Assembly: GCF_035084215.1 (NCBI RefSeq)
Contig: NC_090345.1
Span: 26,102,001-26,166,000 of the forward strand
DNA: 64,000 nucleotides
Reading direction: 5' to 3'
From: Heptranchias perlo
Taxonomy: Eukaryota
Part shown: positions 5,380 through 49,399 of the stretch, in pieces
Position numbering within the stretch: the first letter of the stretch is position 1
Layout: every line of letters begins with the position of its first letter
Made by a program: the position numbers and the translations under genes
Notes under the pieces: model-generated
Database searches by the model: none
Told to the model about the DNA's origin: nothing
Seen by the model: the letters and a program-made list of their open reading frames with translations, nothing else

Positions 5380-6320
5380 ATTCACAGTACGTCTCTGTGC
5401 CGCTCAATGTAGGTATCTCTCACTCCTAAGCGTTTCTATATCTTTGTCTGTTTCATACAAAGTGTGTATATGTATTCACATCAGTCAGAGGATTTCTTAC
5501 TTTGTGTGTGTCTCAGTTACTCACTCAAAGTATTCCATCTCGGTGTCACTTTATGTGTAATTGTCATTCACTATTTCTTTGTCATTCTGTATGCACCTGT
5601 CATTCAGTATGTAGCTGTCACTGTTTCTATCACTCTGTATGTATTTGTGAGTTACACTGTTTCTGTATCTCTTTACACATGTCACTCATGGTTTATGTGG
5701 CTCTATATGTAGCTGACACTCACACTGTTTCTGTGTCCTTATGTTGCTCTATGTATTGGACACTCACTCAGTATGTACCTCTCATTCACTCTATGTCCCT
5801 GTGTCATTCTGCATGTATTTGTTTCTGTGTCAGTGTGCATTTCACTCACATTTTGTTCCTACATCACTCTGTCACATATTTTTGTCATTCTGTATATACC
5901 TGTCACTCACATTATTTTCATTACTATATGTACCTGTCACTCATTGCTTCTGTGTCCCTGTATGTTTATCACTCACTGTCCCAGTACTCTGCATGTATCT
6001 GACACTCATTGTTTATGTGTCATTCTATATATTTATATTTGTCACTCACTATCCCTATCACTCTATATGTGTGTCACTTATTGTTTGTGTCATTCTATAT
6101 GTTTGTCACTTGCTGTCCCTGTCACTATGTATGTCATTTATTGTTTCTTTGTCACTATCCTCTGTACGTACCTGTCACTCATTGTTTGTGTTATTTTATG
6201 TTTGTCACTCACTGTCCCTGTCACTCTATTTGTACCTCTCACTCACTGTGTCATTCTATGTTGTCACTCACTGTCCCTGTCACTCACACATTTTGTATGT
6301 TTCTCACTCACTCACTGACA
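5380..6320. repeat. Degenerate tandem/low-complexity repeat (TGTCACTCA and TGTGTCATTCTATAT units)
   Basis: Recurrent short units; produces spurious Cys/His/Leu-rich ORFs in all plus frames. Confidence 0.85.
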
Positions 6321-6329
6321 GCAGGCCCC

Positions 6330-6620
6330 TACCACCAATGACGTTACCGGAGTGCAGTAACTCGCTGGTTCTGTTGGGGGTCTAAGTTCGCAGATGATGG
6401 GCTGCTCCAAATCGTCATTGGGCCAAGCGGAAGAATAGATCAGTCACTAGTAGTCAGGAGCCCGTTCGCATAATACAGTATAAAAGATAATTTTCAGAAG
6501 AAACAAGACTGGTCAAGGACACGTCAACAGATTAGCAGCTGTAATTTCTCGCTCCCTAAATGGTAGGCTCCGGGACAGTGTACTTCCGCTGACAGCGCGC
6601 GCAGGAAGATGGCGTCCTTC
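6330..6620. promoter_or_regulatory. CpG-rich bidirectional promoter UROS/BCCIP
   Basis: Local CpG enrichment, ETS cores (CGGAAG near 6428, CTTCCG near 6583), GCGCGCGC NRF1-like run, YY1-type AAGATGGCG over the BCCIP ATG; possible minus-strand donor CCG|GTAACG at 6347 for a non-coding UROS exon 1. Confidence 0.7.
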
Positions 6621-6725: not shown

Positions 6726-9700
6726 GTGAGGAGCTAACTGGAGCCGCTCAACCGCCGCCTCACGTGGGGCCGCAGATCGAACTCTAAAGCAGCTCGAGCG
6801 CAGTGGCTTCGAGACTCCGGAACCACGTGGCTAGAAGCGCGAGGTACGGTGCAGAGAGGTACACGTAGAATGCAGACAGATATACACATACTGTGGGTGG
6901 GAGGGATATACGTATACATATACGGGAGTGAGTGAGTGGGAGAGAAATGTATACACACGGGGGGAGGTACGGACGGGAGTGGGTGGGGAAAGAGATATAT
7001 TCACACGAGAGGGGGGTGGGCAGAGAAGAGGGGGGAGGGAGAGGCGGACAAGGGGACGTGTTGTGACGCAGAACATTATGTATGGAGAGGGCTTTGCCAG
7101 GATCATATATATATATATATGTGCATAGAGGGAGAGGGAACCCTGCCCACCTGCAAAATAGCAGCTCTATCCGCTTGGCTCTAAATGCGATCAAGGCAGT
7201 GTCCTAGGCCCAACCATCTTCAACTGCTTCATCAACGACCTTCCCTCCTTCATAAGGTCAGAAATATGGACGTTTGCTGATGATTGCACAGTGTTCAGTT
7301 CCATTCACAACCCCTCAGATAATGAAGCACTTTGTGCCTGCATGCAGCAAGACCTAGACTGATAAGTGGCAAGTAACATTCGCACCAGACAAGTGCCAGG
7401 CAATGACCATCTCTAACAAAAGAGAGTCTAACCACTTCCTCTTGACATTCAACGGCATTACCACCGCCGAATCCTCCACCATCAACATCCTGGGGGGTCA
7501 CCATTGACGAAAAACTTAACTGGACCAGCCACATAAATACTGTGGCTACAAGAGCAGGTCAGAGGCTTGGTATTCTGTGGCGAGTGACTCACCTCCTGAC
7601 TCCCCAAAGCTTTTCCACCATCTACAAGGCACAAGTCAGGAGTGTGATGGAATACTCTCCACTTACGAGTGCATCTCCAACAACACTCAAGAAGTACGAC
7701 ACCATCCAGGACAAAGCAGCCCGCTTGATTGGCACCCCATCCACCACCCTAAACATTCACTCCCTTCACCACCGGCGCACCGTGGCTGCAGTGTGTGCCA
7801 TTTACAGGATGCACTGCAGCAACTCGCCAAGGCTTCTTCGACAGCACCTCCCAAACCTGTGACCTCTGCCATCTAGAAGGACAAGGGCAGTAGGCACATG
7901 GGAGCAACACTACCTGCACGTTCTCCTCTAAGTCACACATCATCCTGACTTGGAAATATATCGCCGTTCCTTCATTGTCCCTTCCTAACAGCACTGTGGG
8001 AGAACCTTCACCACACGGACTGCAGCAGTTCAAGAAGGCAGCTCACCACCTTCTCAAGGGCAATTAGGGATGGTAAATAAATGCTGGTGTTGCCAGCGAC
8101 GCCCACATCCCATGAACAAATATATTAAAAAATGTGACCAGGATTTGACTGTTTCCCGTCAGCTCACTCATAACAACTGAGTCTCATTCAACTGGAGACT
8201 CCATCATTGTTTGTTATTTATAACAATGAGTGTGCTGCCAGGCATTATATCAGGGTGTCCAAACTATGGCCCGGGGTTCATTCCCAACCTTTGAGGCCTG
8301 GCAGTTTGGCCCAAGAAGCTTAGGTAACTTGTATATGTGCTTAAAGTTCTTATTCACTGGTTTTGTGGGTCTGGAAATTTGGAAAGGGTTGTCCTTAGCA
8401 CCGTGACCTCATTGTTTGATAAATTCTAAATCAAAACACCCGTTAGTATCGGCAGTTTGAGATGCATGCATATTAATGGAAACATTAATTCAAACTTTAT
8501 ACGTGGCCCACAAAGGCACAAAGCATTTTTGCTTTGCATGGCTTTTTCTGATAAACTATTTATTGCAATGAATATGACTGTGGCTTGCAGTGATTGGTGT
8601 CATCAGCAATACACATTTACAAATATTTCTATTCCACAGGAGGTGCAAGTAGATTTTGAAGCACATACTATATCTGACAATGATTATAATGGAATCAAGA
8701 AACTGCTACAACAGGTAACTTGGAATATCTGAAAATATTATAAAGTAGAAAGTTTTTGGGTGGCTAAGTTAATGTATACTTACCACAGTTGTAATGATGC
8801 ACTCTATTATCTTTTTATTTGCAGTTATTTCTTAAGGCCAGTATAAACACCGCTGAACTAGCTGGTATCATTATACAGCAGAATCATGTTGGAAGTGTTA
8901 TTCGGGTAAGGTAACTGGTTACAAAATAAGTTCTTAAATTCTATGACAATGTACCAGATCAGAACTGAGGGAAAGAATAATGCTTGTGTTTAACAAAACA
9001 CTACTGTTGTTTTTGATCTTCATCAGCATCGCTGGAATAGGTTGATGAACTCGGACAGAGTTGAAGTTGACTTTCAGATAAATTTAACCTAATCAAAATT
9101 AAGTTTTACAGTTTTTTTTATAAACTTACATGATAGCAATAACGCTGCAAAGTGAAGGAGCTGTGCACATTTACTGTTGAGAAACACTTTGGGGAGAGAG
9201 CATTCTGTACTTGCATAAATTTGGTTTGAAAAATACAAAGAACATTCACGTTTAGGGATCTCTGTGTAACTAAAAATATTTTTCTGACATAATACATAAT
9301 TTACTTAGAAGCAACATTTCACTGAGTGAAAAATGTACCACAGCTGATTTAGCAATAACATTTTCCTTGAGCAAAACAATTATTCATCCACTGTGTAAAA
9401 TCCATTGGCATCAATACAAGTAGAGCATTCCCTGGTATTTTTTTTTCTAGGAGTACAATTTGCTAGTTACAGAATTTTCTCTTGTGGCCTCAGTGTTTCA
9501 TACCATTAATATGATTTCATCAATACAAGTAAGAGACCTGTTGAAAGATAGAGCAGTTATATTATGAGCAGATGACATTTGTTTAGTGTCACTACGATGA
9601 CTTCCTCAAACACCAGCAATGGATCTATATTATTTGTAGTCCTGTTTCAAAGCCGTAATGTAACAGAGTTTAGGCTGCATAGCAAGCAGATGCTGTTTAG

Positions 9701-12700
9701 GAGGTGTATAATTGTCATGGACACCTGTATGTACAAAGCATATTCTCCTCTAACGTGCAGTGAAATAAATCCTGGTATTGCTACATTACCCCTTCAGGTC
9801 AATTATACAAGGACAAGGGCATTCTGGCAGTTTGAAATTGTACCACTTTCATGCACGTTGTCAAAAGAATAAAACAGAAAATGTTGGAGATGCACAGCAG
9901 GTTGATGATCTGAAGGAGAAAGATATGTTAATGTTTCAGGTGTGGTGCTTTATCAGAATGTATTTATTATTATCTACCTTATTTCTGCCAACAAAATCTT
10001 TATATTTTTCCAGACACTTGTATTTATTGTAAGAATGATACTGGAGTGTGTTGCAAGCTAGAGGTGCATCTTGAGATTAGGATAATGAGAACTGCTCTTG
10101 TCTTGTACAATCTTGATATTATTGTCGTGTAGTGTGCCATTTGGTAACCTGTAAATAGTACACTATAATATTTATAGTACATATTTACTGGAATAAAAGG
10201 GCTTGTTTTAGGTGTGTATGATTTCTGGAAGAAATCTGGATGTAGAGGAGATAACTGCTGATGAGATTCAAAAGAAAACTGGATATATATCATGTCACAT
10301 GATGCATTGTACTTCCTGGTATTAAATGGAAGTAGAACTTTTTATGTTTGGCTTAGCATGGATATGGGTCTCGCTGTATGGTATAACTGGATTATTTTAT
10401 ATTTTAAAGCAAGCTGAGATATTGGATGAAAGTGGTGATGAAGCCGACGAAGATGATGTCTTTGGGTTCATCAGTGTTTTAAATCTGACTGAAAGAAAGG
10501 CAAGTACACCATACATTATCTGAGTTGACCAGAAAGTTGCATTACATTTGGGAGTGAATTATTCATCATGCTGGATTTGCATGTGAAATGACAGCTTAAT
10601 AGTCTATATGTTATCCAGTTATTTTCTTGTTTTGCTTGATTGCTTTGAAAATCCTCTTAAGGACCCAAATATTTAGCAATATTGTAGACCATGACTAAGT
10701 TCAACTTTTTGAGGTTCATGAAATATAAGGGTGTGTGCCAAATAGCTGTGATCAAAATTCCTTTGGTGCTTTGCCCTGGAGACAGGGTCAGTCAGCATAG
10801 ATTTGTAAAAGGCAGGTAATGTTTGATCTTTTTTTGGAAAATTGCAGTGTGTAGATAAAGGGAATGTAATATATGGATGGATGTGTGTGTGAATATGTAT
10901 GTATATACATCTCCACATGAGAGGTTTGTTACAAAAATTAGAGCGCATGGTATTAAAGAAATGAAGCTGCATGGAACGGCTAGGGGACAGAGATCAAAGA
11001 ATAGGGTAACTGGGTGTTTTTTGGATTCACAGGATGTAGGTAGTAGTGTGCCCCAGGGATCTGTGCTGGAATGTCAAGTTCTCCTTTTCCATAACTGATT
11101 TAACCATATGCACAATGGGAATTAGATCAAAGTTTGCTGATGATGTCAATTAGGTGGCATGGCAAAGTGTGATGAAGAATGTAAGAGATTGTAGGAAGAT
11201 ATAGTTTGGTGGAGTGGACAGATAAGTGTCAGATGCAGTTCAATGTGGACTAATGGGATGAGTAAGATCATAAGAAATAGGAACAGGAGTAGGCCATAGG
11301 GCCCCTCGAGCCTGCTCCGCCATTCAATAAGATCATGGCTGATCTTCTACATCAATTCCACTTTCCTGCCCTATCCCCATATCCCTTGATTCCCTTAGTG
11401 TCCAAAAATCTATCGATCTCAGTCTTGAATATACTTAATGACAGAGCAACCACAGCCCTTTGGGGTAGAGAATTCCAAAGATTCACAACCCTCTGAGTGA
11501 AGAAATTTTTCTTCATCTTGGTCCTAAATGGCCGAACCCTTATCTTGAGACTATGACCCCTTGTTCTAGATTCTCCAGCCAGGGGAAACAGCCTCTCAGC
11601 ACCTAACCTGTCAAGCCCTCTAAGAAATTTATACGTTTCAATGAGATCACCTCTCATTCTTCTAAACTCCAGAGAATATAGGCCCATTCTACACAATCTC
11701 TCCTCATAGGACAACCCTCTCATCCCAGGAATCAATCTAGTGAACCTTCGTTGCACCGCCTCTAAGGCAAGTACATCCTTCCTTAGATAAGGAGACCAAA
11801 ATTGTACACAGTACTCCAGATGTGGTCTCACCAGAGCCCTATATAATTGCAGCAAGATCTCCTTACTCTTGTACTCCGACCCCCTTGCAATAAAGGCTAA
11901 TTTATTGCAAGGGGGTTGGAGGGGTACAATAGCATAGTGGTTATGTTACTGGACGAGTAATCCAGAGGCCTGGACTAATAATCTGGAGTTATGAGTTCAA
12001 ATCCTGCCACGGCAGCTGGGGAATTTAAACTCAATTAATTAAATAAAACCTGGAATTTAAAAAAAAATACTATCAGTAATGGAGGCCATGAAACTACCGG
12101 ATTGTCGTAAAAACCTATCTGGTTCACTAATGTCCTTTTAGGGAAGGAAACCTGCCGTTGTTACCCGGCCTGGCCTATGTGTGACTCCGGACCCACAGCA
12201 AAATGGTTGATTCTTAATCGCCCTCTGAAATGGCCCAGCAAGCCACTCAGTTGTACAATACAGAAAGTCACAATAAGAATAAAACCGGACGGACCACTAG
12301 GCACCGGACATGACAAAGGCAAACCAAGCCTAGTCGATCCTGCAAAGTCTTCCTCACTAACATCTGGGGACTTGTACCAAAATTGGGAGAGCTGTCCCAA
12401 AGACTAGTCAAGCAACAGCCTGACATAGCCATACTCACAGAATCATACTTTTCAGCAATGTCCCGGACTCTTCCGTCACCATCCCTGCTATTTCCTGTTC
12501 CACCGGCAGGACAGACACACCAGAGGTGGCGGTACAGTGATATACTGTATGGAGGGAGTGGCCCTGGGAGTCCTCAACATTGACTCCGGATCCCATGAAA
12601 TATCATGGCATCAGGTCAAACATGGGCAAGGAAACCTCCTGCTGATTACCACCTACCGCCCTCCCTCAGCTGATGAATCAGTCCTCCTCCATGTTGAGCA

Positions 12701-15700
12701 CCATTTGGAGGAAGCATTGAGGATAGCAAGGGCACAGCATGTACTCTGCTTGGGGGAATTCAATGTCCATCACCAAGAGTGGCTCGGTAGCACCGCTACT
12801 GACCGAGCTGGCTGAGTCCTGAATGACATAGCTGCCAGACTGGGCCTGCGGCAGGTGGTGAGTGAACCAACACGAGGGAAAAACCTACTTGATCTTGTCC
12901 TCTCCAATTTACCTGTTGCAGATGCATCCGTCCATGACAGTATTGGTAGGAGTGACCACCGCACAGTCCTTGGGGAGTGCCACACACTATCCAAAGTGTG
13001 TGGCACTACCACCGTGCTAAATGGGATAGATTCAGAGCAGATCTAGCAGCTCAAAACTGAGCATCCATGAGGCGTGGTGGGCCATCAGCAGCAGCAGAAT
13101 TGTATTCCAGCACAATCTGTGTAACCTCATGGCCCGGCATAATCCTCACTCTACCATTACCAACAAGGCAGGGGATCAACCCTGGTTCAATGAGGAGTGT
13201 AGAAGAGAAAGCCAGGAGTAGCACCAGGCGTACCTAAAAATGAAGTGCCAACCTGGTGAAGCTACAACACAGGACTACATGCATGCTAAACAGCGGAAGC
13301 AACATGCTATAGACAGAGCTAAGCGATTCCACAACCAACAGATCAGATCAAAACTCTGCAGTCTTGCCACATCCAGTCGTGAATGGTGGTGGACAATTAA
13401 ACAACTAACGGTAGGAGGAGGCTCCGTGGACATCCCCATCCTCAATGATGACAGAGCTCAGCACGTGATTGCAAAAGACCAGGCTGAAGCGTTTGCATCC
13501 ATCTTCAGCAGTGCCGAGTGGATGATCCATCTTGGCCTCCTCCCGATATCCCCATCATCACAGAAGCCAGTCTTCAGCCAATTCGATTCACTCCACGTGA
13601 TATCAAGAAACAGCTGAGTGCACTGGATACAACAAAGGCTATGGGCCCCGACAACATCCTGGCTGTAGTGCTGAAGACTTGTGCTCAAGAACTAGCCGCA
13701 CCTCTAGCCAAATTGTTCCAGTAAGCTACGACACTGGCATCTACCCAACAATGTGGAAAATTGCCCAGGTATGTCCTGTCCACAAAAAGCAGGACCATTC
13801 CAATCCGGCCAGTTACCGCCCCATCAGTCTACTGTCAATCATCAGCAAGGTGATGGAAGGTGTCGTCGACAGTGCTATCAAGTGGCACTTACTCACCAAT
13901 AACCTGCTCAGTTTGGGTTCCGCCAGGACCACTTGGTTCCAGACCTCATTACAGCCTTGGTCCAAACATGGACAGAAGAGCTGAATTCCAGAGGTGAGTT
14001 GAGAGTGACTGCCCTTGACATCAAGACAGCATCTGACCGAGCGTGGCACCAAGGAGCCCGAGTAAAATTGAAGTCAATAGGAATCGGGGGGAAAACTCTC
14101 CAGTGACTGGAGTCAGACCTAGCACGAAGGAAGATGGTAGTGGTCATTGGAGGCCAATCATCTCAGCCGCAGGACATTGCTGCAGGAGTTCCTCAGGGCA
14201 GTGTCCTAGGCCCAACCACCTTCAGCTGCTTCATCCCTCCATCATAAGGTCAGAAATGGGGATGTTCGCTGATGATTGCACAGTATTTAGTTTCATTCGC
14301 AACCCCTCAGATAATGAAGCAGTCCGTGTTTGCATGCAGCAAGACCTGGACAACAACCAGGCTTGGGCTGATAAGTGGCAAGTAATATTTGCGCTAGACA
14401 AGTGCCAGGCAATGACCATCTCCAACAAGTGAGAATCCAACCACCTCCCCTTGACATTCAGCGGCATTACTATCGCCGAATCCCCCACCATCAACATCCT
14501 GGGGGTCACCATTGACCAGAAACTTAACTAGACCAGCCACTTAAATACTGTGGCTACAAGAGCAGGGCAGAGGCTGGTGTGTGACTCACCTCCTGACTCC
14601 CCAAATCCTTTCCACCATCTACAGTGCACAAGTCAGGAGTGTGATAGAATACTCTCCACTTGCCTGGATGATTGCAGCTCTAACAGCACTCAAGAAGCTC
14701 CACACCATCCAGGACAAAGCAGCCCGCTTGATTGGAACCCCGTCCACCACCCTAAACATTCATTCCCTTCACCACCGGCGCACCCTGGTTGCAGTGTGTA
14801 CCGTCTAGAGAATGCACTGCAGCAACTCGCCAAGGCTTCTTCGACAGCACCTCCCAAACCCGCGACCTCTACCGCCTAGAAGGACAAGGGCAGCAGGCAC
14901 ATGGGAACAACACCACTTGCACGTTCCCTTCCAAGTCACACACCATCCCGACTTGGAAATATATCGCTGTTCCTTCATTGTCGCTGGGTCAAAATCCTGG
15001 AACTCCCTACCTAACAGCACTGTGGGAGAACCTTCACCACACGGACTGCAGCGGTTCAAGAAGGCGGCTCACCATCACCTTCTCTGCAATTAGGGATAGG
15101 CAATAAATGCTGACCTTGCCAGCAACGCCCATGTCCATTGAACGAATAAAAAAATATATATTACCCGCAATCCAGCGAGCCCTAATCTTGTGTGGCACCT
15201 TATCGAATGCCTTTTGAAAATCCAAATCTACTTCATCCACTGGTTTCCCTTTATCTACCCTGCTAGATACACCCTCAAAAAATTCGAATAGATTTGTCAA
15301 ATATAATCTCCCTTTCACAAAACCGTGTTGAGTCTGCCTAATAATATTCTGATTTTCTAAGTGCCCTGATTCTACATCATTAATAATAGATTCCAGCATT
15401 TTTCCTTTTACTGATGTCAGGCTAACCGGCCTAAAGTTCCCTGTTTTCTTTTTTTCCCCCCTTTCTTGAATAGCCGGGTTACATTTGCTACCTTCCAATC
15501 TACGGAGACCATTCTAGAATCTAGAGAATTCTGGAAGATCAAAACCAATGCATCCATTATCTCTGCCGCCACCTCTCTTTTAAAACCCTAGGATGTAGGC
15601 CATCAGGTCCAAGGGATTTGTCGGCTTTTAGTCCCATTAATTTCTTCAGTAATCTTTCTTTACTAATATTAATTACTTTAAGTTCCTCACTCTCATTAGA

Positions 15701-18700
15701 CCCTTGGTTCTCTACTATTTCTGGTATTTTTTTTATGTCTTCTACTGTGAAAACAGATACAAAATATTTGTTTATTGTCTCTGCCAGTTCCTTATTCCTC
15801 ATTATAATTTATCCTGTCCCTGCCTCCAAGGGATCCACATTTACTTTCACTAAACTCTTCCTTTTTACATATTGAGAAGAAGCTCTTACAATCTGTTTTT
15901 ATATTTCTTGCTAGTTTACTCTCATTCAGTTTTCTCCTCCTTTTATTAATTTCTTGGTCATCCTTTGCTGATTTCTAAAACCCTCCCAATCCTCAGGCTT
16001 GCAACTCTTTGGCAACGTTGTAAGCCTCGTTTAATCTAATACTATCCTTAACTTCTCTAGTTAGCCACGGTTGGATTACTTTTCCTCTGGAGTTTTTATT
16101 TCTCAAGGGAATGTATATCCGTTGAGAATTATGAATTATTTCTTTAAACGTTCGTCATTGCTTATCTACTGTCATATCTTTTAATCTAATTTCCCAATCT
16201 ACCTTAGCCAACCCACCCCTCATACCTATGTAATTGCCTTTGTTTAAATTTAAGACCCTAGTTTTGGCCTTAACTACATTGCTCTCAAACACAATATGAA
16301 ATTCGATCATATTATGATCATTCTGCCCCAGAGGATCCTTAACTGTAAGATTACTAATTAACCCTGTCTCATTACACAATACTAGATCTAAAATAGCCTG
16401 TTTCCTAGTTGGCCCCTCAACATATTGTTCTAGAAAACTGTCTCGCATGCATTCCATGAACTCATCCTCTGAATTACTTTTGCCAATTTGGTTTGCCTAG
16501 TCTATGTGAAGATTAAAGTCCCCCACGATTATTGCATTAATCTTGTTACTTGCTCCTCTAATTTCCTGATTTATACTCTGTCCAACACTACAACTACTGT
16601 TAGGAGGCCTATAAACTACTCCCACTGGTGTTTTCTGCCCCATGTTATTTCTTAGCTCCACCCATACTGATTCTACATCCTGATTTTCTGAGCTAAGATC
16701 CTTTCTCATTACTGCCTTTATCTCATCCTTGATTGTCAGGGCTAGCCCCCCTCCTTTGCCATTTTGCCTGTCTTTTCTAAAAGTCAAGTACCATGGCATA
16801 TTTAGTTCTGAACCTTGGTCACCCTGCAACCACGGCTCAATCCCATTTATCTCTATTTGTGCCATTAATTCATCTATCTTGTCACGAATGCTTTGTGCAT
16901 TCCGATATAACGCCATTAATTTTAACTTAGTATTTTTTCCCTGATGTGACCTTAGTCACTAATACCCTATTATCTTTGTTACACTCTCTGTCCCTTCCTG
17001 ACACACTACTTGTTTTTACCCAAATCGCTACTCTGCACTACAGCCTTGACTTTTCTCTTTAGACTTATTTTTACCCTTACCTGAACCCTCCCCCACTCCC
17101 ACCCCCCTTATTTTTTTTTATTTGTTCAGGTGATGTGGGCATCGCTGACTAGGCCAGCATTTATTGCCCATCCCTAATTGCCCTTGAGAAGGTGGTGGTG
17201 AGCCGCCTTCTTGAATCGTTGCAGTCCATGTGGTGAAGGTTCTCCCACAGTGCTGTTCGGTAGGGAGTTCCAGGATTTTGACCCAGCGACGATGAAGGAA
17301 CGGCGATATATTTCCAAGTCGGGATGGTGCGTGACTTGAAGGGGAACATGCAGGTGGTGTTGTTCCCCATGTGCTTGCTGCCCTTGTCCTTCTAGGTGGT
17401 AGAGGTCGCAGGTTTGGGAGGTGCTGTCAAAGAAGCCTTGGTGAGTTGCTGCAGTGCACCCTGTGGATGGTATACGCAGCAGCCACAGTGCGCCGGTGGT
17501 GAAGGGAGTGAATATTTAGGGTGGTGGATGGGGTTCCAATCAAGCGGGCTGCTTTGTCCTGGATGGTGTGGAGCTTCTTGAGTGTTGTTGGAGCTGCACT
17601 CATCCAGGCAAGTGGAGAGCATTCCATCACACTCCTGACTTGTGCCTTGTAGATGGTGGAAAGGCTTTGGGGAGTCAGGAGGTGAGTCACTCGCCGCAGA
17701 ATACCCAGCCTCTGACCTGCTCTTGTAGCCACAGTATTTATGTGGCTGGTCCAGTTAAGTTTTTGGTCAATGGTGACCCCCCCCAGGATGTTGATGGTGG
17801 GGGATTCGGCGATGGTAATGCCGTTGAATGTCAAGGGGAGGTGGTTAGACTCTCTTGTTGGAGATGGTCATTGTCTGGTTATAAGTTTTAAGCCCTATTT
17901 ACCACCCTAGTTATTCGATTCGTCAGGACACTGGTCCCAGCCCTGCTTAAGTGACTCCGGTCCCAAAGGAACAGCTCCCTCTTTACCTAGCACTGGTGCC
18001 AGTGCCCCATGAGTTGAAATCCCTTCCACCCGCACCACTCTTTCAACCACGCATTTAACCATCTAACCTGTTTGTCCCTATGCCAGTTTGCGTGTGGCTC
18101 AGGTAGTAATCCAGAGATTATTACCTTTGAGGATCTTTTTAATTTGGACCCTAGCTCCTTAAACTCCCTCAGCGGAATCTCATTCCTAGTTCTACCTATG
18201 TCGTTGGTTTCTACACGGACCACGACAACTGGATCCTCTCCCTCCTTCTCCAAGTTCTTCTCCAGTTGCGAGGAGATGTCCTTAACCCTGGCACCGGACA
18301 GGCAACACAGTCTTTGGGACTCCCGGTCGCGGCTGCAGAGAACAGTATTTATCCCCCTGACTGTACTATCTCCTAACGCTACTACATTCCTTTTCACTCC
18401 CACCACTTGAATAGCCTCTTGTACCACGGTGCCATGGTCAATTTGCCCATCCTCCCTGCAGTCTTTGTTCTCATCCACACAGGTAGCAAGTACCTCGTAC
18501 CTGTTGAACAAAGGCTGAGGCTCGTCCACCACTGGATCTGGGGTCCCCTTACCTGCCTGACTCGCAGTCACATCCTTCTATCCCTGACCACTAATCAAAT
18601 GTAAACAACTACCTAACCTAAGGGGTGTGACTGCCTCCTGGTTCAAAGTGTCCAGGTAACTCTCCCCTCCCTGATGCATTGCAATGTCTGCACCTTGGTC

Positions 18701-24175: not shown

Positions 24176-49327
<25,152 letters not shown>

Positions 49328-49399
49328 GGCAGCGACAGTGTGCATAAAGAGAGCCAAGTAGACCGTGCGGAACTATCAGATACAATATTTGTACTGTTA

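Follow-up and report, generated by a model that had tools for sequence, protein, structure and literature searches.

Can RNA polymerase III (Pol III) transcribe a retrotransposon that encodes its own reverse transcriptase (RT)? The question is raised by 64,000 nucleotides (nt) of DNA from Heptranchias perlo (NCBI RefSeq assembly GCF_035084215.1, contig NC_090345.1, positions 26,102,001 to 26,166,000 of the forward strand; this whole stretch is called the window), in which copies of a long interspersed nuclear element (LINE) of 3.3 kb begin with a tRNA-derived head carrying the A and B boxes of a Pol III promoter. Pol III normally makes short non-coding RNAs only. An earlier note, made from the letters of the window alone, had remarked that the sense strand of this LINE is almost free of runs of four T (T4), which terminate vertebrate Pol III, and had proposed that the ancestral element was selected to be read through by that enzyme.

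In the parts of the literature drawn on here, the assignment of LINEs to Pol II and of SINEs (short interspersed nuclear elements) to Pol III is a defining line (PMC2666806, PMC5786205), autonomous LINEs are stated to be Pol II transcribed (PMC5786205), and Pol III is said to make no coding RNA in normal biology (PMC8223928). The same sources report that Pol III can yield translatable RNA, removal of TTTT about doubling the output of a reporter (PMC8223928), and that Pol III RNAs retrotranspose without the first open reading frame (ORF1) of LINEs (PMC2666806). The shortest reported terminators are TTTT and TVTTT, T3 alone being none (PMC8466645). No paper on a Pol III-transcribed coding LINE or on this family was found in a search that left most subscription papers, Repbase and Dfam uncovered, so that an earlier deposition is possible; motif searches of the supplements of PMC4824008 and PMC5804259 gave no matches. 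By examining the family across the genome, together with control LINEs and more distant relatives, we describe an autonomous single-ORF LINE with an A/B-box head and a coding strand poor in T runs, and we lean slightly, on the evidence of sequence, towards its being transcribed end to end by Pol III.

The family and its coding frame

The genome (3.25 Gb) holds 11,660 candidates for the 5' kilobase of the element. Thirty-nine copies were fetched, 14 truncated or rearranged ones were dropped, and the other 25 were aligned with the two full-length copies of the window (copies 1 and 2; Table 1); these 27 lie 2-6% from their own majority sequence, which is 3,298 nt long with 19.9% T. Young natural copies were obtained via a protein search (20 fetched, of which 19 were kept and one, L078, was dropped as a chimera). 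Among these 19, picked by their RT frame, ten start at nt 1-2 of the element, five at nt 9-11, and four are truncated further; those starting at nt 1-2 have precise 5' ends and unrelated flanks, and in a second organism 51 contigs leave the element at nt 1. The element has the internal 5' A and B boxes of a type 2 Pol III transcription unit and lacks an internal T4. The start that the earlier note gave for copy 1, 12005, cuts off the tRNA head; copy 1 begins at 11922. ARAGORN calls a tRNA-Thr(AGT) on copy 2 and on one of the 25 loci, and the head has no stable fold (z -0.27). A stable 5' structure or ribozyme was rejected (z -0.27 and -0.14); in Rfam no ribozyme family reached threshold, and the only matches were sub-threshold hairpins at the insertion junction. 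The 5' junction of copy 1 (window 11866-11932) is an inverted duplication, or hairpin, of CR1-like target DNA.

On an intact copy Pfam recognizes PF03372, PF14529 and PF00078, that is, an APE endonuclease and an RT in one frame, which is 970-1,016 amino acids (aa) long in young open copies and typically 973 aa. The copies share a common 3' end with an A tail and show 5' truncation, as expected of APE-type retrotransposons without long terminal repeats; no convincing target site duplication was seen among 70 loci, some of which have the 5' end out of view. The frame begins after only about 300-350 nt and ORF1 is absent, unlike in canonical two-ORF CR1/L2 elements. Changes found in at least six of the 46 aligned copies comprise 22 synonymous and 7 non-synonymous ones, compared with 303 and 819 among private changes (non-CpG). 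This excess of synonymous changes among the shared ones means that master copies were translated, and on these counts the frame is shown to have been under purifying selection in the master lineages.

An in-frame ATG stands at 12230 in copy 1 and at the same place in the older majority. In the young subfamily (L070-L089) that ATG is followed by stops, leaving a two-codon upstream ORF at element nt ~325-360; the open frame has ACG as its fourth codon, and most frames have their first Met near codon 249. Because the shared changes upstream of that Met again show a synonymous excess (7 synonymous, 2 non-synonymous, unpolarised), the pattern suggests that the endonuclease part of the young subfamily is reached by non-AUG initiation.

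In a quick tree the element stands apart from the CR1 frames of the host and from frames that we take to be Tx1-like. Four other organisms hold 69-74% of its 31-letter words, which amounts to very high identity, and contigs of four runs cover 30 of 30 element bins; such identity would reflect either slow evolution or horizontal transfer. A search of viral contigs for relatives of the element found none.

Scarcity of T runs

The single-copy observations of the earlier note are borne out: copy 1 has only two T4 runs, at 12136 and 12449, both of which are T3 in copy 2, and the T4 runs of copy 2 (plus-strand A4 at 39249, 39940 and 41673) are absent from copy 1. Copy 1 thus has 2 T4, where base shuffles give 5.1 (P 0.105) and dinucleotide shuffles 3.6 (P 0.28), and copy 2 has 3, where the same shuffles give 5.2 (P 0.24) and 2.9 (P 0.66). 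The abundance of A4 offered as a contrast fails, as it equals expectation: with 29% A and 21% T on this strand, 15.4 A4 are expected and 17 are observed. The contrast with neighboring CR1 mostly holds: three roughly delimited stretches of 3.4, 3.1 and 1.6 kb have 11, 18 and 7 T4, respectively, and a fourth of 1.25 kb has only one.

It is at the level of the family that the deficit appears. A conserved T4, which the earlier note had held to be fatal to its proposal, is lacking: the 27-copy majority has no T4 and seven T3 in 3,298 nt. Fourteen of the 27 aligned copies are without any T4, as are 18 of the 19 open frames of young natural copies, and the body is T4-free in 13 of the 15 young copies that reach the head; the T4 runs that copies do hold are private or recurrent at T3 sites of the family. 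Judged by base composition, the whole element falls short in T4 (0, with 4.1 expected, P 0.013) and further in T3 (7, with 20.7 expected, P 0.0003). The T3 deficit persists under synonymous permutation of the frame (5 vs 11.8-12.8, a ratio of 0.4, P 0.0007-0.0033) and under dinucleotide shuffles of the whole element (7 vs 13, P 0.012). TTT is the most depleted of the 64 triplets (observed/expected 0.27), and the majority holds no TTTT or TVTTT where a null that preserves codon usage expects 3.5 (P 0.013).

The choice of synonymous third positions points the same way. Of 40 sites at which T would create TTT, 5 have it (12.5%), compared with 45 of the 147 at which only TT would result (P 0.015). 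The TT-only sites show no avoidance (31% T, compared with 32% at matched non-TT sites); in seven of seven control frames this test is flat or runs in the opposite direction. Phe makes up 2.0% of the protein, less than in any of 69 full-length protein relatives. The TA dinucleotide is low as well. Avoidance of splice sites or poly(A) signals was considered and rejected: pyrimidine tracts are enriched rather than depleted, there is no depletion of splice motifs or of AATAAA, and Pol II processing signals therefore do not explain the deficit. Among cross-species changes to T, none of the nine listed makes T3 or longer where ~0.9 are expected, a comparison with no power.

Control LINEs and relatives

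Twenty control loci were fetched, 12 from other families and 8 from this same LINE family. Six Tx1-like frames with 19-21% T contain 2-12 T4, with T3 ratios of 0.93-1.35 and 6.9-9.7 T3/kb, compared with 1.7/kb in the element; six CR1 frames of this genome contain 8-13 T4, with T3 ratios of 0.96-1.19. Head-less sister families in this genome were a further candidate and were rejected, the two diverged fragments being old copies (best matches ~76%). Among the Tx1-like sequences, intact GC-rich RT frames of 1,311-1,319 aa are clustered ~7 kb apart (contigs C38, C13, C725, C1626 and C424), and a single frame of 2,095 aa is seen with them; these clusters are possibly a site-specific element in tandem array.

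Of 80 metagenome loci, 66 match with a frame of 400 aa or more, only five of these with T below 25%. Every one of the 66 relatives has at least two T4 and a T3 ratio of at least 0.75 (mean 0.99), and none has a B box upstream. Four of them belong to the clade of the element, a group of single-ORF LINEs of the CR1/L2 type (support 99) that lies apart from host CR1; these four, two of them partial, differ from the element in holding 3-36 T4 and no upstream B box. The composition-matched one (L093, T 21.5%) has 18 T3 in 1.95 kb, or 9.2 T3/kb vs 1.7. The scarcity of T runs is thus real, specific to T and to this lineage, and a property of the family.

A derived SINE and the 3' tail

A junction pattern, from the 5' body end to the tail, occurs 568 times (control 0). 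Among 20 such loci, seven carry a young SINE of ~410 nt, consisting of nt 1-359 and the last ~60 nt of the LINE, and since its junction contains the first codons of the LINE frame, the SINE was derived from the LINE by internal deletion. That it would be Pol III-driven follows from established SINE biology. Many distinct deletion junctions between 5' body and tail are found among the first 100 matches (L190-L209), older ones being 70-80% identical, and by this evidence SINEs seem to have arisen repeatedly from the LINE.

The label Deu domain, or SacSINE1, first given to the 5' body was rejected. Of four Deu motifs from the PMC7245038 supplement (at most one mismatch), the element has none and a control flank three; neither of two Meta motifs follows the head, so that the element is no MetaSINE. 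A separate SINE on the opposite strand, ~620 nt upstream of the LINE match at locus L075, holds three of the four Deu motifs.

At 705 of 11,340 exact 3' ends (6%), T4-5 replaces the start of the A tail, giving the layout AATAAA, terminator, A tail. A footprint of Pol III termination was rejected as the origin of these runs, which fit a post-insertion change, and so was an inherited SINE-like T+ subfamily, as divergence (P 0.68) and total tail length are equal and no diagnostic site exists. Going by these comparisons the runs are probably post-insertional; a change from A to T at this boundary after insertion is described in the relevant part of PMC8466645.

Features of the window

Table 1. Copies and parts of the tRNA-headed LINE in the window
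Feature	Position	Strand	Remark
Copy 1 of the tRNA-headed LINE	11922-15153	+	decayed
tRNA-derived head, element nt 1-96	11922-12017	+	5' ends of copies, ARAGORN
A box, type 2 Pol III promoter, element nt 9-19	11930-11940	+	0-4 mismatches per position in 40 copies
B box core, element nt ~73-81	11995-12003	+	no variation at five core positions in 40 of 40 copies
AT-rich spacer and unnamed 5' body, common to LINE and derived SINE	12018-12229	+	not Deu, not Meta
Private T4	12136-12139	+	T3 is the family state
T4, recurrent change at a family T3 site	12449-12452	+	3 of 46 aligned copies
Single APE endonuclease and RT frame	12230-15093	+	broken by stops and frameshifts in copy 1
3' untranslated region (UTR)	15094-15154	+	AATAAA at 15102, short A tail
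Copy 2, full-length	38287-41757	-	split, 41757-40853 and 40576-38287
Inverted 3' fragment of the same LINE family	40577-40852		interrupts copy 2
5'-truncated copy of the same LINE family	7191-8133	+	
5'-truncated copy of the same LINE family	17109-17878	-	

Copy 2 lies between, and on the same strand as, two stretches (34555-35034 and 48917-49372, both minus) that we take to be exons of a DEAH-box helicase, DHX32-like. A low-complexity tandem region rich in TG and TC (5430-6385) gives rise to spurious open frames.

Proposed Pol III transcription and its alternatives

We propose that TFIIIC and TFIIIB would start Pol III at nt 1 of the element, and that transcription would stop at the first T-run of the flank. 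Selection on active masters would purge T4 and near-terminators, masters with terminators leaving no progeny, and would so maintain read-through over 3.3 kb. The uncapped RNA would be translated cap-independently, with no AUG ahead of the endonuclease in the young subfamily. The element's own protein would copy this RNA, without ORF1, through target-primed reverse transcription that begins at the encoded short A tail. Whether the whole picture holds, that of a natural autonomous Pol III retrotransposon with 3.3 kb of coding RNA, its terminators purged down to the level of codons and amino acids, translated cap-independently (AUG-less in the young subfamily) and repeatedly spawning tRNA-SINEs, we regard as evenly balanced. 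To the read-through postulated by the earlier note, the deficit in T runs, as read from sequence, lends moderate and partly independent support that falls short of proof: the T3 and TVTTT counts, the controls and the clade comparison favor it, whereas T4 alone is weak and a fitted penalty on TT explains the deficit.

A number of points weigh against Pol III transcription. The T4 count of one copy was dropped as evidence, being not significant (P 0.1-0.3), and for T4 alone the family shows no more depletion than codon composition yields, an outcome that the earlier note had named as a refutation: with codon usage and protein fixed ~1.9 are expected (P 0.09-0.10), and dinucleotide shuffles give P 0.11. 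The strongest signal is carried by T3, which is not itself a terminator, and the T3 test was post hoc, one of 12 run classes, with P ~0.02 after correction. The T3 deficit is absorbed when a TT penalty is fitted to the number of TT observed (P 0.13-0.39); a swap chain with fixed TT probably mixes poorly, and the tilted chain used in its place also removes the T3 signal, although this null is partly circular because each TTT contains two TT. A2 runs are likewise low (P 0.006), the young copy L072 has one TTTT/TVTTT with 3.6 expected (P 0.076), and 15 of 19 young copies carry one TCTTT near nt 565, at which motif about half of B2 transcripts reportedly end. A comparison of A and B boxes across subfamilies lacks power, and the absence of ORF1 is not diagnostic, because the clade has a single ORF anyway. 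The control frames represent a few families only, 2 of the 66 relatives have T3 z-scores below -2.6 (lowest -3.49), the lack of an upstream B box in the 66 includes some contigs that are short upstream, and this set leaves out the DNA of the nearest relatives (44-50% identity). Since all copies are one lineage, they are one evolutionary sample.

Composition could account for the same strand by other means, if a C-ending codon bias poor in TT and TA were combined with Pol II transcription from an internal or neighboring promoter, the head being a captured SINE end that serves the short derivative only. We consider this possible but clearly less probable than transcription by Pol III: it would explain why the fitted TT penalty absorbs the T3 deficit, why the absence of T4 has P ~0.1, why TA is low too and why one TCTTT is tolerated, but not why TTT-making sites are avoided while TT-only sites are left alone, why LINEs of this genome and of the clade with equal T content hold 4-5 times more T3, or why coding copies have intact boxes at nt 1. 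A further scheme has host Pol II read-through RNA cut at the tRNA-like head in the manner of RNase P, which would give precise uncapped 5' ends, with U-runs kept low for the sake of RNA stability (AU-rich elements, U-binding proteins). Other LINEs have self-processed 5' ends, the same 5' ends are predicted, and the frame lacks ATTTA, with an expectation of no more than 1.3 (P 0.2). We nevertheless think this scheme improbable, as the head folds poorly and passes ARAGORN in one of 25 loci, the 5' UTR itself holds T3 of the ATTTA type, and no ribozyme family reaches threshold.

Least probable of all, in our judgment, is selection at reverse transcription or integration, through an RT that slips or stalls on oligo-U or an endonuclease that avoids its own T-runs. 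Such selection would produce a T-specific and strand-specific pattern, as observed; yet T4 is plentiful in relatives of the clade whose enzymes are the same, A-runs (the T-runs of the other strand) are undepleted, and the flanks show by eye no evident preference for T- or A-runs and no clear target duplications.

Relation to known elements

The element resembles tRNA-derived SINEs (SINE2) in its A/B-box head at nt 1, its LINE-type 3' end, its short A tail and its lack of internal T4. SINE2 elements are, however, short and non-coding, whereas the element has 3.3 kb and a selected frame of 973 aa; it is the ~410-nt derivative that fits SINE2. In contrast to a SINE2 and its partner LINE, the derived SINE here is the LINE minus its middle, with both head and tail in common. 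A similar pairing of a tRNA-headed SINE with a LINE of the CR1/L2 group occurs in cartilaginous fishes, in the SacSINE1 and LmeSINE1 DeuSINEs and their tail donor L2-2_CM (in the part of PMC5499810 drawn on), but SacSINE1 and LmeSINE1 have a Deu domain and the element, being without it, belongs to another family. RTE and Vingi have bipartite non-autonomous LINEs, short derivatives that likewise consist of the 5' and 3' ends of a LINE; according to PMC5786205, their tRNA head is added to the derivative, while here the autonomous element is already headed.

Among LINEs, RTE-1_DAn and related elements in Repbase are also reported to contain tRNA-like sequence; they belong to the RTE clade, and where PMC5786205 discusses them the tRNA match is treated as accidental, with no position, promoter test or terminator analysis in that section. 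Closest in protein are single-ORF APE-RT LINEs of the CR1/L2 group, such as those from Branchiostoma and Scylla, with frames of 930-1,000 aa and 44-50% identity over the searched region.

The terminator analysis offers sequence evidence that is independent of the appearance of the head. If the proposal is true, this vertebrate element, present in high copy and with young copies that are intact, would provide a natural Pol III mRNA of 3.3 kb, and with it a case of cap-independent and possibly AUG-independent translation. The family would also illustrate a direct route for the origin of SINEs: the element would be, in effect, an autonomous SINE.

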